DNA of 64,000 nucleotides from NCBI RefSeq assembly GCF_003790525.1, contig NZ_CP033635.1; one strand, written 5' to 3'. The position numbers and the translations under genes were made by a program. Below, one piece after another: positions 328 to 6,867 of this stretch. Origin of the DNA: Escherichia coli (GTDB taxonomy: Bacteria > Pseudomonadota > Gammaproteobacteria > Enterobacterales > Enterobacteriaceae). Under the pieces are notes generated by a model, which searched no databases, had not been told where the DNA came from, and worked only from the letters and a program-made list of their open reading frames with translations. Every line of letters begins with the position of its first letter. Within the stretch, counting starts at the first letter, position 1.

Positions 328-1383
328 TTAACGCAAGCTATTATAGTCATCGACCATTTCGTTGTACTCGCGTAACGCTCGTGGAAATGAGTCGTCGACC
401 ATCCAGCTTGTGTTTGCATCCTGAAGTTGCTCTTTATCCCAGTCAGAATACGGAACTTTATCTCTGACGCGGCGAACATATTTTTTAGCCTCGAGTTGAT
501 ACTGGTCTGCCGAATTAATGAACGAGAAATTCATACCGCCTTTATCCGCTTCTTTGGCCTGCGCCACCAGCGTTTCCAGTTCAGACACTTTCTTCATTGC
601 CGCATCAACATCAAACTTCTCTTGCGATATCAGGTTATTAATTTGTTTCGCTGAAATCATGACTGCCAGAGAATAGTAGTGGAATGTTTTCCCTTCTCTT
701 TCTTCAATATTTTTCAGTTCCGCAAGCTGACGCTTATCATTAATTTCCTGGATCGCCGCATGATAAGATTCGGCTACAGGTTCAAAGGCTTCCAGATTTT
801 TTAAGAATGTCTGGTGCAGCGTTTTCCCTTTCGCAAACGCATCGTCTTTATAATTTTCCTGGGTGTAATATTTATCCATTTCGTTAATGGTATTACCCAA
901 CGCCACGGCAGCATCGATATAACTCACCGCTACGCCATCAATAGGTTGCAGCGCAGGCGTTAACGCCACAGCACTTTTTACGCCTTTTTCACACTCAGCG
1001 AGGCTGGATTCACTAAAGCCGTAGATGCCATAAACAGTACTCTCTTTACCGGTAGGCCCCTGTTTAAAATCTTTCAGCCAGTCAGCATAACGCGCCAGAC
1101 TGCGCTGTACCGGGATCTGTAACTTGTTGTAGCACTTGATATAGACATCCATTTTTTCGTCGAAAACCGCTTGTTCATCGACCACCGGTTGGGCAGGAGT
1201 TTCAGGTTTAACTTCTGCTTTTGCAACGGGAGCTTCAGCAGGTTTCGCTTCAGGAGCTGGTGCGGCAGGTTGACTATTGGCAGGCGGGGGCGTTTCTGTT
1301 TCGGCTTTTTTATCATCACAACCCGTGAGACCGAGGGCCATGATGGCGACTATAATAGCGGAAGATAATAAATTCCTTTTCAT
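328..1383 (-). CDS. yiiG: Lipoprotein YiiG (DUF3829 family), 351 aa
   Basis: The N-terminus MKRNLLSSAIIVAIMALGLTGC carries a lipobox (LTG-C), followed by a Pro/Ala/Glu-rich linker. Length and context match K-12 YiiG. Confidence 0.9.
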   Translation of the reverse strand: MKRNLLSSAIIVAIMALGLTGCDDKKAETETPPPANSQPAAPAPEAKPAEAPVAKAEVKPETPAQPVVDEQAVFDEKMDVYIKCYNKLQIPVQRSLARYADWLKDFKQGPTGKESTVYGIYGFSESSLAECEKGVKSAVALTPALQPIDGVAVSYIDAAVALGNTINEMDKYYTQENYKDDAFAKGKTLHQTFLKNLEAFEPVAESYHAAIQEINDKRQLAELKNIEEREGKTFHYYSLAVMISAKQINNLISQEKFDVDAAMKKVSELETLVAQAKEADKGGMNFSFINSADQYQLEAKKYVRRVRDKVPYSDWDKEQLQDANTSWMVDDSFPRALREYNEMVDDYNSLR

Positions 1384-1497: not shown

Positions 1498-1528
1498 TTC
1501 CTGCGACTTAAAATATAAATCGCAGGAA
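1498..1528 (-). terminator. Candidate terminator hairpin of the two-gene accessory cassette
   Basis: ttcctgcga ... tcgcaggaa arms (9-bp stem, AT-rich loop) lie about 50 nt downstream of the 768-aa ORF stop. On the minus strand a T-rich tract (ttatt) follows. Confidence 0.45.
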
Positions 1529-1577
1529 GCGATTTTAATTACCCGCTCTACCACTGGCGCAGGATATAAACTCTCAC

Positions 1578-3884
1578 CTACATTCCATAACGTTCAGAAA
1601 TAGCAGCATGCTTCTCTTCATTCGCCCCGGCTTCTTTGGCAAGACGCCACCAGCACAACGGATGTTCCCAGTCAGCGGTCAATTCGTGCAAGGTCTTATC
1701 GATATCACCTTTAGAAACTGAACGCGGCGCGCTGATAACAAAGTAGAACGCGGGCAGCGGCTGTGCATCTTCTCCCTGCTGGCTGTCCGTTAACGTATAG
1801 TCCTCGTTACTGTTGCTCCAGTAGTACCAGTTTCGTTCACGGAGCGCCTCACGGAAGGCATTAAACTGTTCTTCACCAGGCATGACACCTTCGCAGAACC
1901 AGGACTCGCCGTACTCAGTCGGGATAATGGTTTGCAGGCAGGCATAAAGTGGCGTGAAATTCTTCCGTTCTTCCTCATCCTCTGGTTGGGTGTTCAATAT
2001 TTCCGCATCGAATACCACAACTTCATCAACATGTTGCGGATAATCGGTCCGGTAAGTTGGCTCAATGATCCTTGCTGTTACCGGCCCAATACGTTGAGCA
2101 TAGTAATAGCGGTATTCATAATTTTCCCGGAAGCGAATGTTTAGCAGTCCCCATTTTTCGTCGATAAAACCTTCACCTTCCGTAAGTTCGATTTCCAGTT
2201 CAGCTGCAATAGCACGAACCAAATCCCATTGTTGCAGGATGCTGGCGGTCGCCATGATATCCCACTGGATATTACGAATATCTTCTTCACGGCTAATCAT
2301 CAGTTGCTGCAATTGTTGTAAATAATCCAGCTGTCGATCCCAGGCTTCCTGTTTTTGTGCTGCCCAGGAGCACATGCGATAAACGCCGATCCACTCACGC
2401 CCTTTTTCGTTTTGCAGCAACTGGTGCCCAATCGACTCGAGTTCACTCCAGTCTTCCTGTTGGTTGATCACTCGCGCACGGAACCACAAGGCCATATGTA
2501 GCAGCCCCGCCTGTTCATACTGCTTCGCCAGGTGCTCAATGGTTTGCAGATCGTCACGGTGGAGCAATAAATCCAACAGATCGAAGCAAAGACCATTATC
2601 TTCCTGGATGTGGCTTTCGACGTAGCGTTGCAGAAGTTCAATCGACTCATCAATCGCATTACAGGCGTTTAACGCATTGACCAGTTTGCCCAGCAATTCC
2701 GCATCATCTGGCGCGTTCAGGTAAGCGCGGCGGAATGTTTCGACGTCTTTTTCTGGATCTGGCTGCGTTTCTTCATCGCTATTTTCAGGTACTTCTACAA
2801 CCGGACGAGCAAGCAACTCTGCTTCTTTGGCGGCGATTTTTTCACTCAGTTCGAGAAACTCACGATCAACCCCCAGTAACACGCGTAATTTTGGCATGTG
2901 TCGCTGGGCCAGTTTCATCGCTATTTTGGCAACCCAGACGGATTCACGCTCCAGCGCCAGGGTAATTTGCAGTTTCGCCAGATCAACCACTTTGCGGTGC
3001 GCTCCGGCCTGCGAGCGGTGCTCCAGCATTTTTTGGATGATGCGCGCCAGTTGCCAGTTGTTTCTTTGTGGATGACGGGGAAGTAACACAGTAATGATTT
3101 TCAGCCATGACCCCCATGAATGGGGAGTCAGATCTGACCAACGCGGTAATTCCTCCCAGACTTCTTCGTCCTGCCCGCATAACGCCATGATGTACAGTTT
3201 TTTGAGGTGATTACTAATGCGGTCGCGGCCCCAGTAATCATTGGCTTCTGTCAGCTCATCAATCAGTATGCGTGCTTCATCATAACGCTGAAGTTCAATC
3301 AGAATATCGGCACGAGTATAAAGTAATGCATCAATATCATCTTCCCCGGCTGCTTTAACTGCGTCGATTTGTCGATCCAGATAAGCCAGTGCCTCCTCTA
3401 TTCTTTTGGAATCTATCAGTGCACTGGCATATTCAGTGGACAAACACTGAAAACAGCTCCAGGTCGGATCAATCCGCGCGATGGTTTCTTCACATACCGC
3501 CATACGTTCATTCGCCCAGCCAGGTGCATCAATATTTTCGTAGCAGGCGGATAAATCCTGGGTAACGCAGATAGATTGTGGGCAATCTTTTGTCTCTTCC
3601 CGGTGCGCTTTTTCAAACAGCGCTACCACGTCTGGCAGCACCTTTTCACCTTCTTCATAGTTAGTCAGGCGATGACGCATTTCCCAGTGACCAATAAATA
3701 TTTCCAGCCACGGATTTTTTGCCACCTGGGTAAGTGCTTTTACTTCAGGTAACAGCGAATCGCACTTTTCCATTTGCAGGTGCATAACGCCTTCCGAATA
3801 ATCATCGATAAGTTGCGGAATATACTCCTGCCCGGCATCGCGTAACTCCTTAGTATATTTGTGATACCACTCCCATATATCCAT
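1578..3884 (-). CDS. 768-aa helical-repeat (TPR-like) protein of unknown function, partner of the Hsp90 paralog
   Basis: Long uninterrupted ORF whose ATG (3884-3882) lies 1 nt after the upstream gene's TAA. The N-terminal ~550 aa are rich in Leu/Ala/Glu/Trp amphipathic segments such as ALLYTRADILIELQRYDEARILIDELTEA (TPR-like). It has a Cys cluster (C101-x4-C106, C114, C131, C144-x2-C147). The C-terminal ~200 aa show no recognisable motif. No signal peptide or TM segment. Confidence 0.8.
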   Translation of the reverse strand: MDIWEWYHKYTKELRDAGQEYIPQLIDDYSEGVMHLQMEKCDSLLPEVKALTQVAKNPWLEIFIGHWEMRHRLTNYEEGEKVLPDVVALFEKAHREETKDCPQSICVTQDLSACYENIDAPGWANERMAVCEETIARIDPTWSCFQCLSTEYASALIDSKRIEEALAYLDRQIDAVKAAGEDDIDALLYTRADILIELQRYDEARILIDELTEANDYWGRDRISNHLKKLYIMALCGQDEEVWEELPRWSDLTPHSWGSWLKIITVLLPRHPQRNNWQLARIIQKMLEHRSQAGAHRKVVDLAKLQITLALERESVWVAKIAMKLAQRHMPKLRVLLGVDREFLELSEKIAAKEAELLARPVVEVPENSDEETQPDPEKDVETFRRAYLNAPDDAELLGKLVNALNACNAIDESIELLQRYVESHIQEDNGLCFDLLDLLLHRDDLQTIEHLAKQYEQAGLLHMALWFRARVINQQEDWSELESIGHQLLQNEKGREWIGVYRMCSWAAQKQEAWDRQLDYLQQLQQLMISREEDIRNIQWDIMATASILQQWDLVRAIAAELEIELTEGEGFIDEKWGLLNIRFRENYEYRYYYAQRIGPVTARIIEPTYRTDYPQHVDEVVVFDAEILNTQPEDEEERKNFTPLYACLQTIIPTEYGESWFCEGVMPGEEQFNAFREALRERNWYYWSNSNEDYTLTDSQQGEDAQPLPAFYFVISAPRSVSKGDIDKTLHELTADWEHPLCWWRLAKEAGANEEKHAAISERYGM

Positions 3885-3885
3885 T

Positions 3886-5721
3886 TTATTTTCCTTGATT
3901 AATTAAGACAGGAATAACCTGAGTAAAATCTTCCAGTGCCTGGTGTAAATCCCACTGCTGTTCTTTATTACCGCTGGAGCACAAAATCACTTTCAGCGAT
4001 TTTAATAAGCGTAATGCCGCTGCGGGCTGTTGCTGGTGTTGTAATGCCGTCACCAGTTGCATGATGCAAGGGTTATTAAGGTTGATGTATAAACTTGAGG
4101 TTTTCGTTTTTTGGATTTGTGAAGTAAATTGCCGCGCCAGCATTAACGCTGCGGTGCTGATGCGTTTATCTGCGTCATCCTGTTCGAGAATTTGTTTTAA
4201 TTCTGCTTCGCGGTCTGGCGTAACCACTAACGGTAAAACGGCGGGTTCGAAGCGGGAGATAATTAATTGCTCGCCATCGCAGAGATGCTCTTCCAGATAA
4301 GCTACCTGCTCTTCGGGTAATTCCGCCAGGCTGAACAACTGCTCATTACCTGTTTGCGTACCGACTTCGACAATCCGGCAGTGATATAACAGCGCCCAGC
4401 GACGTAAAAATGGCACGACGGCATAGCGATCGCCACGGGCAACGGGCCGTTGCAGAATGTGGAACAACATCTCTTCAAAACCGCCGTCGCGGCTTAACAG
4501 AATATGAATGCTGTTATTAACGCGTAAATCCTTCGCCAGCAACGCCCCTTTTGACGTTGGCACCTGCAAGCGATCTTTGAGCAAATCAAACAGACGGTCA
4601 TCACATAATGCCGCACCGAGCAACGCTTCGTTGTGGCGCATTAATACACGCCGCCAGATTTCTGGCTGATTTTGTGCGAGATCGGACAAACCAGAAATCA
4701 GCGCCTCTTTTAACGCCTCCTGCACCGCAACCCAGGTTTCGTCCCGCTGGAGATCTTCCCGGCTCGCCGTAGGCGTTAGTTTCGATGACTCAATCACGCC
4801 GCCAATAAATCCGGCCCAGGGAGGTAACAACTCACGCGCTTCATCATCCAGTAACATACCGCGCAAAAACAGCGACAGGTTGCGGTTATCGCTGGTGCCG
4901 TAGGTTGCGCCATCCTGAATCCATAAAATCCCAACCGCGTCGCTCATCCCCACGGGCACCACCGGAATGGTGCAAATCGGTTCGAAGGAGGATTCAAACT
5001 GGGCGGCAAAGGCGAGATTTTTACGCTGTACCAGCGCGCGGTGCATGGTTACGCCTTCGGGGGCAACTTCACGCCACGGTGGTTGAAGTTTATTTACCGG
5101 CTCGCTGGCATCGCCGACATAGACCGGTTCGTGCAGCAATATACAGTAGCGGGAAAGAACGCGGTTCAGCAAATTGTTACTCGCCAGATGGCTGTACTCT
5201 TCTTTGAGCGTCAGAATCACCTGCGTACCCGTTTCCGAGGACTGATGCGGCGTAACGGTATATTTTTGCCCGTCGGTAGAGTGGTATTTCCAGCTCTGAT
5301 CCGGCGTTTGCCAGGATGTGGTCAACACCGTGACCTCTTTCGCCAACACAAAGGCCGACAAAAAACCGAGGCCGAACATACCAATTAAACCGGTGTTGTC
5401 ATCCTGCTGGCGCAACATTCGGGTATAACCCACGCCTACTGTCGCCAGGAAGCCGTGAATTTCACTTTCTGTCAGTCCAGCGCCAGTATCGCTAATAGTG
5501 ATAGTGGACTTCGCCACGTCTGCCACCACACGAATCGCGTTATCCTTTGGTGCATCGGGCTGCTCAATCCTGCGGCGAACGATCGCATCATGGCCGTTCT
5601 GCACCAGCTCGCGCACGGCAACCACGGGAGTGGAGTAAAGATGCTTACTGAGCACCTCAATTAAGCCGTTTAAATTAACTTCTGTAGAATATGAACTACC
5701 AGGTAACTGTAATGTACTCAT
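3886..5721 (-). CDS. Hsp90/HtpG-family GHKL ATPase paralog, 611 aa
   Basis: The protein aligns by eye with E. coli HtpG. TEVNLNGLIEVLSKHLYS...VRELVQNGHDA matches SEVKQLLHLMIHSLYS...LRELISNASDA. TITISDTGAGLT matches TLTISDNGVGMT, and LIGMFGLGFLSAFVLAKEVTVLT matches [23 protein letters not shown]. The middle-domain segment FIGGVIESSKLTPTASREDLQRD matches [23 protein letters not shown]. Confidence 0.88.
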   Translation of the reverse strand: MSTLQLPGSSYSTEVNLNGLIEVLSKHLYSTPVVAVRELVQNGHDAIVRRRIEQPDAPKDNAIRVVADVAKSTITISDTGAGLTESEIHGFLATVGVGYTRMLRQQDDNTGLIGMFGLGFLSAFVLAKEVTVLTTSWQTPDQSWKYHSTDGQKYTVTPHQSSETGTQVILTLKEEYSHLASNNLLNRVLSRYCILLHEPVYVGDASEPVNKLQPPWREVAPEGVTMHRALVQRKNLAFAAQFESSFEPICTIPVVPVGMSDAVGILWIQDGATYGTSDNRNLSLFLRGMLLDDEARELLPPWAGFIGGVIESSKLTPTASREDLQRDETWVAVQEALKEALISGLSDLAQNQPEIWRRVLMRHNEALLGAALCDDRLFDLLKDRLQVPTSKGALLAKDLRVNNSIHILLSRDGGFEEMLFHILQRPVARGDRYAVVPFLRRWALLYHCRIVEVGTQTGNEQLFSLAELPEEQVAYLEEHLCDGEQLIISRFEPAVLPLVVTPDREAELKQILEQDDADKRISTAALMLARQFTSQIQKTKTSSLYINLNNPCIMQLVTALQHQQQPAAALRLLKSLKVILCSSGNKEQQWDLHQALEDFTQVIPVLINQGK

Positions 5722-5987
5722 TTTTCAATACTCATAATCCATCACCTACTATTGAAAATACATCGCTGTTTTTACAACCGGTGCAAGGTTTGTTATTTCA
5801 TTCACTCATCGGAAACATTTATTTATTGACGCGATGATTAAAACAAAATGTCTTATATAAATAATGATTAATTCTTAAAGGATTAATGCGACTGGAGTAT
5901 ATCGATATAACCCGGAGTTAACGAGATAATTTCTTGTGGTGAAATTATTATTTGAATGCTGAATAATATATTGAGGATTATTTAATA

Positions 5988-6024
5988 GAAAAATAAAACC
6001 GCAATCCAGAATCAGAATTGCGGT
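5988..6024 (-). terminator. Rho-independent terminator of fdhD
   Basis: accgcaat / attgcggt stem (5998-6005 and 6017-6024) immediately after the fdhD stop, followed on the minus strand by tttatttttc. Confidence 0.7.
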
Positions 6025-6030
6025 ATTTCT

Positions 6031-6867
6031 TTAATTATGAATCAAACGCTGCGGATGGGTATAAACCGTTGCCCGACCCGGTTTACAAAAACCTACCAGT
6101 GTCAGATTACAGCGCTCAGCCACTTCTACAGCAAGCGTGGTCGCGGCAGACACCGCAAACAAAATCTCTACGCCGCACATCGCTGACTTTTGCACCATTT
6201 CATAACTGGCACGGCTGGAAACCAGCACCGCACCTTGCTGCCAGCTTTCCCCTTCTTGTGACCGGCGGCCTAACAGTTTGTCCAGCGCCACATGGCGACC
6301 CACGTCTTCATGCCCGCCGACCAGTTCGCCAGATGGCAACATCCAGGCGGCGGCGTGAGTACAACCGGTCAGTTGCCCCACTGGCTGAAAATCATTGAGA
6401 TGACGTAATGCATCATCCAGTTTGTTGAGATCAAACGTCTGGGTGAACGGTAGCGGCTGCACCGGTTTTCCGATGTCATTAAGTTGCTCCACGCCGCACA
6501 CGCCACATCCCGTACGTCCCGCCAGTGCCCGGCGACGCTCCTTCAACCCCATAAAGCGGCGGCTGGAAAGCTCAATTTGCACTTCCAGACCATTACAGGA
6601 AGGAACGACATCCATACCGAAGATATCGCGCGGACTTTCGATAATCCCCTCGGAAAGCGAAAAACCGAGCGCAAAGTACTCAAGGTCTTTGGGTGACGCC
6701 ATCATCACTACATGCGAAATGCCGTTGTAGACCAGCGCAACGGGAACCTCTTCCGCCACCTCATCTAACCGTGGGTGTTGTAAATCATCACGCCGCCATA
6801 ACTCAATTTGACGAACACCTGTGACACTTGTCACATTTTCGATTTCTTTTTGCTGTGTTTTTTTCAC
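6031..6867 (-). CDS. fdhD: Formate dehydrogenase sulfurtransferase/accessory protein FdhD
   Basis: The 278-aa ORF is divergent from fdoG. The sequence ([12 protein letters not shown]...GCGVCG...) and context match K-12 FdhD. Confidence 0.95.

Follow-up and report, generated by a model that had tools for sequence, protein, structure and literature searches.

A cysteine- and TPR-containing protein encoded directly behind an Hsp90-family ATPase in Escherichia coli: a candidate adaptor or co-chaperone of a bacterial Hsp90 paralog

Why does a gene for a large protein, annotated only as hypothetical, stand directly behind a gene for an Hsp90-family ATPase in some strains of Escherichia coli, and what might the two proteins do together? 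This question was addressed by a computational analysis of a 64,000-nucleotide stretch of an E. coli genome (NCBI RefSeq assembly GCF_003790525.1, contig NZ_CP033635.1), the whole of which is called the window here. The two genes in question lie in the window as follows:

1578..3884, minus strand: open reading frame (ORF) of the partner protein with cysteines and tetratricopeptide repeats (TPR), 768 amino acids (aa), WP_000355938.1, a 'hypothetical protein' in RefSeq; its stop codon is at 1578..1580
3886..5721, minus strand: gene for an Hsp90-family ATPase of 611 aa, WP_000105771.1, an 'ATP-binding protein' with the alias 'Hsp90xo', located upstream of the partner gene

The answer that we favour, with a probability of about one half, is that the 768-aa protein acts as a dedicated, operon-encoded adaptor or co-chaperone of this bacterial Hsp90 paralog.

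The first line of evidence comes from the arrangement of the two genes. Only one base separates the TAA stop codon of the Hsp90 gene from the ATG of the partner gene, and an AAGGA sequence is present 5' of this ATG. By scanning one genome for each of 185,579 species we have identified relatives of the 768-aa protein in 245 stretches, mainly from Xanthomonas, Stenotrophomonas, other Lysobacteraceae and Pseudomonas, as well as from a few Enterobacterales, Acinetobacter, Psychrobacter and some Betaproteobacteria. An Hsp90 gene lies immediately upstream and on the same strand in 87 of 87 loci from about 23 genera, and no other neighbour gene is conserved across these 23 genera. A reverse search that started from the Hsp90 clade in metagenomes gives 80 loci, 78 of which have room downstream; the N-terminal half of the partner (N-half) is encoded there in all 78, and both this and the C-terminal half (C-half) are found in 69, the others being cut by contig ends. 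The pairwise identities of the two proteins are also closely correlated (r=0.987). Their layout makes the two genes a strict pair with translational coupling, and this pair is inherited and maintained as a unit. The first-pass annotation of this DNA, made from the sequence alone, had named the 611-aa neighbour as the partner of the 768-aa protein, a choice that the genomic linkage and the co-divergence of the two proteins argue for. One locus, L083, belongs to a record of Nocardiopsis yanglingensis strain A18. Its coordinates and identities are the same as those of the Stenotrophomonas loci (TPR protein 37.6%, Hsp90 59.9%), so this locus probably represents contamination or mis-binning in an actinobacterial assembly.

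The 768-aa ORF is a functional gene under purifying selection, as indicated by a ratio of nonsynonymous to synonymous substitution rates (dN/dS, omega) of 0.10 overall in comparison with four other Escherichia species. Diversifying selection is ruled out by omega values of 0.07-0.19 in all segments of the gene. The 611-aa gene is likewise under purifying selection, with an omega of 0.02-0.03. The chromosome of E. coli SMS-3-5 is 100% identical to the window, and 107 full-length-type homologues of the protein have been found. The protein is acidic, with an isoelectric point (pI) of 4.7, and has no transmembrane segment, since the maximum of its 19-residue Kyte-Doolittle mean is 0.99; this agrees with the cytoplasmic location proposed in the first-pass annotation, and the ORF and six peptides quoted there are all present, the peptides at residues 162, 186, 396, 448, 361 and 584. 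A well-characterised family spanning the whole protein, for which that annotation had suggested a search, did not emerge from Pfam, NCBIfam, PADLOC and PDB sequence searches. Because these searches return TPR matches only, a known-family identity for the whole protein is rejected, and the protein is a member of an uncharacterised family outside any characterised one.

What is this protein built of? An AlphaFold2 model was made from 52 homologues, with a predicted local distance difference test score (pLDDT) of 92.2 and a predicted template modelling score (pTM) of 0.77. Together with the profile matches, it reveals a modular protein with five parts:

3429..3884, minus strand: N-terminal helical module (N-module), aa 1-152, the most conserved part, without a Pfam family
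2808..3428, minus strand: TPR block 1, aa 153-359, modelled as helical hairpins, with Pfam TPR_19, TPR_2, TPR_16 and TPR_12 at aa 150-215
2757..2807, minus strand: acidic disordered linker, aa 360-376, pI 4.05, the boundary of the two halves, at which the half-size relatives end
2199..2756, minus strand: TPR block 2, aa 377-562, modelled as helices, with consensus TPR protein matches at 385-536 (E=2.7e-55)
1581..2198, minus strand: C-terminal alpha/beta domain, aa 563-768, an orphan in which Tyr, Trp and acidic residues are abundant

In the model, aa 1-562 are all-helical and comprise 28 helices with a sole break at the acidic stretch 360-376, and aa 579-768 form an alpha/beta domain. The only low-confidence stretch is block 361-370 (pLDDT 58), which coincides with the acidic linker that had been noticed between the repeats in the first-pass annotation. 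The TPR-like solenoid suspected there proves to be a genuine TPR superhelix, with tandem repeats above the profile threshold: Pfam TPR_19 at aa 156-215 scores 32.6 bits against a cut-off of 25 (E=1e-7), TPR/PPR profiles match TPR block 1 at positions 154-281, and the family profile matches consensus TPR proteins at positions ~154-540 with E=2.7e-55. The closest structural relatives of the modelled solenoid are MalT domain III (MalT-III), AimR, Rap, NprR, PlcR and APPBP2, that is, ligand- or peptide-binding sensors, suggesting that the solenoid may indeed be a ligand- or protein-recognition module, as had been supposed. The C-terminal domain, considered an orphan from the start, remains one: neither a Pfam family nor a recognisable catalytic family is found by profile and fold searches, and the fold search gives generic ferredoxin-like matches only. 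Two PDB matches at aa 693-753, 4y9i and 6wta (E ~0.1), were dropped as chance matches, as neither the C-terminal profile nor the fold search reproduced them, and a profile search for this domain within other architectures returned only fragments of the same family. Across the whole 768-aa protein, Pfam, profile and fold searches detect no effector family, be it nuclease, protease, TIR, SIR2 or another, and there is no DNA-binding or other output domain among the Pfam matches.

The most conserved part of the protein is the N-module. The lowest column entropy of the whole protein is found at aa 51-150, and among distant pairs the identity of the N-module is 61%, while either TPR block reaches 36% and the C-terminal domain 43%. 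Conservation of the N-module is as high as that of the Hsp90 partner, suggesting that a docking element is likelier to lie in the N-half. No Pfam family matches the N-module, nor does any zinc-ribbon family of Pfam. Seven cysteines, C41, C101, C106, C114, C131, C144 and C147, are present in these 152 residues and include two motifs:

3567..3584, minus strand: C101-P-Q-S-I-C106, an invariant C-P-Q-x-x-C in homologue alignments
3444..3455, minus strand: C144-F-Q-C147, an invariant C-x-x-C at the N-terminus of helix 143-158

The first-pass annotation had pointed to this Cys cluster as a possible metal site and had asked whether the cysteines are conserved. Both pairs are: C101, C106, C144 and C147, along with P102, Q103, H66 and W6, are invariant in 52 of 52 aligned homologues with 27-95% identity and in 243 of 243 near-complete N-domains. 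The remainder of the cluster fares less well, since C114 is kept in 214 of the 243 N-domains, and C131 (103 of 243) and C41 are not conserved. The invariant Cys pairs would fit a metal or redox site. Mean-field coupling analysis of 278 sequences (effective number, Meff, ~160) gives the coupled pairs 112-130 (rank 14 of ~13,000), 108-130, 111-131 and 108-134, which share an i+j of ~240 and are centred on the nearly invariant D119-G-P-G122. This weak pattern from a small sample may serve as a lead to a hairpin or an antiparallel dimer, either of which would bring both Cys pairs together.

Does the 611-aa neighbour belong to the Hsp90 family? It scores above the cut-offs of Pfam HATPase_c_3 and HSP90, and TRAP1 and HtpG can be aligned with its N-terminal and middle domains at E=5e-30 to 7.5e-28. 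In the alignment its segments RELVQNGHDA, DTGAGLT, GMFGLGF and SREDLQ correspond to the motifs of TRAP1 and HtpG for ATP binding and for the catalytic loop, so that the Bergerat motifs and the catalytic-loop Arg of the middle domain are kept, as is expected of an Hsp90-family protein. The protein scores 288.5 bits against NCBIfam NF010683 (cut-off 455, E 1e-85) and 197.5 bits against the HtpG model NF003555 (cut-off 371), and these scores below the cut-offs place it in a separate clade. Thus, it resembles E. coli HtpG and mitochondrial TRAP1 in its N-terminal and middle domains and in the motifs for ATP binding and for the catalytic loop, but differs from them as a distinct clade with signatures of its own, WAGF[VI]GGV and [TS]SDNRNLS, and with a Cys/TPR gene always behind it. 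In 83 paralog sequences and in the window copy, the C-terminal tail finishes with an amphipathic helix (DLNxAFxDxAxAxxQLL, with variants). It has been noted that groups B and C of the bacterial Hsp90 paralogs were omitted from functional studies (PMC3708813), and that bacterial Hsp90 has no identified co-chaperones (PMC7926864).

Which part of the partner goes with Hsp90? A search of 1.84 billion representative proteins with a profile of the N-module gave 595 matches, 369 of them at E <=1e-30. Among the best 150 of the 595, the alignment always begins at one of the first six residues; most of these proteins are 730-810 aa long, with a recurrent class of 347-366 aa that ends at the position of the acidic linker. 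The N-module in other architectures was also looked for, and the best 150 of the 595 are all of full family length or shorter with the match at the N-terminus. The half-size relatives follow an Hsp90 gene in five of six distinct contexts, and the loci are arranged as follows:

L095, L096 and L097: Hsp90 gene followed by an N-half gene
L093, 4178..8321: genes for an Hsp90 paralog (608 aa), an N-half (365 aa) and a protein of 408 aa, in this order, with start and stop codons that overlap
L091, 1040..7071 (metagenome 3300035180): genes for an Hsp90 paralog (633 aa), a Ser/Thr kinase of 945 aa that carries TPR repeats at its C-terminus, and an N-half (356 aa), in this order
L088, 1774..7074: the single N-half-only relative found to have no Hsp90 gene beside it; it stands ~600 bp downstream of a gene for a 1209-aa AAA_27/SMC_N ATPase

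As the half-size relatives still stand after Hsp90, the link with Hsp90 needs neither TPR block 2 nor the C-terminal domain, and the N-half, which accompanies Hsp90 throughout, represents the conserved core, with the C-half as an add-on. The first-pass annotation had offered the C-terminal domain as a possible Hsp90-docking element, an idea that does not agree with these relatives of ~355 aa, in which TPR block 2 and the C-terminal domain are missing and which follow Hsp90 all the same. Neither of the additional proteins in these operons can be taken as a detached C-half: the 408-aa protein of L093, which has no Pfam family and carries a twin-arginine-like N-terminus (RRAAFLAGALATLVP), shows no BLASTP similarity to the E. 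coli C-half, and neither does the 945-aa kinase-TPR protein of L091. The position of this kinase between Hsp90 and the putative adaptor may recall, by analogy, the Hsp90-Cdc37-kinase arrangement. At L097, genes for Peptidase_C11, TGase_elicitor, VWA+FHA, zf-UBP and protein kinase domains form a cluster (7099..14037) that is convergent to the Hsp90 and N-half pair and looks like a signalling or conflict module.

Comparison with known systems helps to define what is shared and what is not. With the eukaryotic co-chaperones Hop/Sti1, PP5, CHIP, Sgt1 and Unc45 the 768-aa protein shares the coupling of a TPR protein to an Hsp90-family ATPase and the modular combination of TPR with an extra domain. 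However, it has a TPR-like solenoid of ~20 helices in place of their 3-TPR clamp and an invariant Cys/His module without a Pfam family, and the homology is limited to the generic TPR motif. Another bacterial cytoplasmic protein that combines TPR repeats with a conserved four-Cys motif is LapB (YciM), whose structure 7wzb is among the TPR profile matches. LapB differs in that it is anchored in the membrane by its N-terminus and ends in a rubredoxin-type zinc ribbon, whereas the 768-aa protein has neither a transmembrane segment nor a zinc-ribbon match and carries its cysteines in an N-terminal helical module. The likeness to MalT and other STAND sensors is confined to the solenoid, as no NTPase family is found in the 768-aa protein by Pfam and NCBIfam. 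Sequence identity to MalT-III and the RRNPP receptors (AimR, Rap, NprR and PlcR) is only 7-10%, and the helix-turn-helix and phosphatase domains are absent here. Among the systems compared, the 768-aa protein comes closest in its presumed way of working to an Hsp90 TPR co-chaperone, yet it lacks the EEVD-clamp feature that defines such proteins.

The same pair is present in Pseudomonas aeruginosa (locus L002), with 42% identity for the partner and 58% for Hsp90. It is flanked by a gene of LysR type on one side and by the bra ABC-transporter genes on the other, and flgB follows at a distance of a few genes. This gene order is presumably that of PA1067-PA1077 in strain PAO1, and we therefore take the pair to be PA1068 ('hsp90 family') and PA1069 (Q9I4Q5), an assignment made by gene order and not by sequence comparison. 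No functional study of this Hsp90/TPR pair was found in the literature, where PA1068, PA1069 and Hsp90xo occur in omics tables or as unrelated strain names only; the survey of chaperone-based conflict systems by Kaur et al. 2020 does not mention Hsp90. The PA1069 protein has been detected in proteomes as a hypothetical protein apparently operonic with the Hsp90 gene, its abundance responds to efhP mutation, and according to an earlier study by the same authors it is induced by elevated Ca2+ and/or biofilm growth (PMC4053335). PA1069 is also included in a table of the AmrZ regulon (PMC3946381).

On these grounds we propose how the pair may work as an adaptor or co-chaperone and its Hsp90 paralog. 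The N-half would dock on the Hsp90 paralog, and its C-P-Q-x-x-C, C-x-x-C and His residues would hold a structural or regulatory metal, either Zn or an iron-sulfur (Fe-S) cluster, or serve as a thiol switch. An extended part of a substrate or ligand might be captured in the TPR grooves, whose nearest structures are peptide or ligand receptors, and the ATPase cycle of Hsp90 would then remodel the captured substrate or the partner itself. The C-half, with TPR block 2 and the alpha/beta domain, would serve as an accessory specificity or output module; related operons are without it, and some of them carry a different linked gene instead, such as the Ser/Thr kinase with TPR repeats. We may go one step further and suggest, tentatively and with less confidence than the adaptor role itself, that the 768-aa protein is the first example of an obligate co-chaperone or adaptor encoded in one operon with a bacterial Hsp90. 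Hsp90 and a Cys/His-TPR N-half would then make up a constant core, which metal or redox state may gate, and this core would serve exchangeable second modules, which are a fused TPR and alpha/beta half in E. coli and elsewhere a linked gene, for example a TPR Ser/Thr kinase, recalling the Hsp90-Cdc37-kinase logic.

Several points weigh against this proposal. It draws on genomic context and structural models, and a pairing as strict as this one would be equally expected of a chaperone with its client or of a two-gene defence system. None of the 83 paralog sequences from the loci, nor the window copy, has an EEVD-like tail, so the C-terminal acidic (M)EEVD peptide to which the eukaryotic TPR-clamp co-chaperones bind is missing here and their mode of binding is unlikely. 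The predicted metal site relies on conservation and weak covariation and is at odds with the AlphaFold2 model, in which DSSP assigns residues 104-135 to a single helix that would separate C-x4-C from C-x-x-C. Finally, the mRNA of PA1069 shows a log2 fold change of -1.98 at 46 C (PMC4957987), which is unlike a classical heat-shock chaperone operon.

Could the relationship between the two proteins be the reverse, with the 768-aa protein as the working protein, for example a metallo- or Fe-S protein or a ligand sensor, and the Hsp90 paralog as its private factor for folding, maturation or activation? The one-to-one pairing and co-divergence fit such a dedicated client just as well, and the four invariant Cys and one invariant His could hold a cofactor that needs assisted insertion. 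PA1069 has been co-purified with IscS and IscR in one co-immunoprecipitation list (PMC13411936), although this is anecdotal. However, no catalytic family is recognisable in any domain of the protein, and the variable third genes, encoding the kinase-TPR and 408-aa proteins, look like alternative substrates or outputs of a constant core of Hsp90 and N-half. We therefore consider a dedicated client unlikely, but it is the rival that survives best against an adaptor or co-chaperone.

The distribution of the pair raises another explanation, that it is a two-gene conflict or anti-phage system in which the TPR superhelix, like the sensor arms of STAND/Avs-type proteins, recognises a protein or peptide of a phage, the GHKL/Hsp90-like ATPase acts as a switch and the C-terminal domain is an unrecognised effector. 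The pair is accessory in E. coli, as only 254 of 5426 complete genomes carry it, in a segment of ~4.5 kb between yiiG and fdhD. In E. coli genomes without the pair yiiG adjoins fdhD, and the homology breaks at ~1541-1571 and 6030 of the window. The pair is also patchy (245 of 185,579 species) and its identities are incongruent with taxonomy, the E. coli protein being ~40-42% identical to both the Phytobacter and the Pseudomonas copies. The best fold matches, MalT-III and AimR, the variant locus beside the Peptidase_C11, VWA-FHA, zf-UBP and kinase cluster, and weak matches of the Hsp90 N-terminal domain to PADLOC TmtA and to GHKL modules of type II restriction endonucleases would also fit a defence role. 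On the other hand, PADLOC-DB 2.0 gives no match for the 768-aa protein and only a weak generic GHKL match for the ATPase (TmtA, 5.7e-6, ~110 residues), and no relative of the 768-aa protein was found among 2.9 million viral contigs, for which reason a phage origin is rejected as well. Housekeeping genes flank the pair in E. coli, P. aeruginosa and Xanthomonas, no conserved defence neighbours are seen, and both the lack of a detectable effector family and the strong purifying selection without a diversifying signal speak against the idea. The pair also recurs across the genomes of many Xanthomonas and Stenotrophomonas species, which suggests that it is common in those genera. A defence function appears improbable on balance; if it were true, the pair would represent a system without a recognisable effector.

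We regard it as very doubtful that the 768-aa protein is instead a ligand- or redox-sensing regulator, with a Cys module sensing oxidants, metal or Fe-S status and/or a TPR groove sensing a peptide, and with the Hsp90 ATPase relaying the conformational signal downstream: the invariant C-x-x-C and C-x4-C at helix starts, the RRNPP-like and MalT-like fold that points to ligand sensing, the responses of PA1069 to Ca2+, biofilm growth and efhP mutation (PMC4053335), its listing in the AmrZ regulon (PMC3946381) and the Ser/Thr kinase of one variant operon are in its favour, but a DNA-binding or other output domain is absent, no conserved regulator or third gene such as an RRNPP peptide gene is seen near the pair (small-peptide ORFs were not searched for specifically), and this idea overlaps with an adaptor role and does not exclude it.

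How the pair came to its place in E. coli can be considered from its surroundings. The Hsp90 partner is ~98-99% identical in E. fergusonii, E. marmotae and E. ruysiae, and no mobile-element genes are found inside the pair segment. This distribution in Escherichia could reflect either ancestral presence followed by loss in most E. coli or introgression. Three further features border the two genes:

5722..6029, minus strand: AT-rich region 5' of the Hsp90 gene, part of the segment missing from E. coli without the pair; no convincing promoter could be assigned in it
1517..1535, minus strand: terminator-like hairpin downstream of the 768-aa ORF, in sequence common to genomes without the pair, where it would directly follow fdhD
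5998..6024, minus strand: terminator-like hairpin right after fdhD, within the pair-specific segment

The yiiG gene beside the pair (328..1383) is ~80-91% identical to most E. coli yiiG genes, and only 3920 of 5426 genomes match it at the megablast level. On the other side, fdhD (6031..6867) is 95-98% identical in nearly all E. coli genomes. The yiiG flank may have been exchanged together with the pair. Further along the plus strand, the alpha subunit of formate dehydrogenase-O appears as two ORFs, 7061..7648 and 7697..10111, with a gap at 7649-7696, and is one continuous coding sequence in RefSeq; we take this split to be the known selenocysteine TGA codon and not a sign of a pseudogene.

In summary, if the 768-aa protein is an adaptor or co-chaperone of its Hsp90 paralog, as we propose, what would this mean for the family? 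The N-terminal Cys/His module and the C-terminal alpha/beta domain are now defined as two orphan domains, together with a natural split point between the halves, and this can guide the design of constructs. The pair is present in genetically tractable E. coli, P. aeruginosa, Xanthomonas and Stenotrophomonas, and it offers a compact two-gene system for direct tests of co-chaperone-like regulation of Hsp90.

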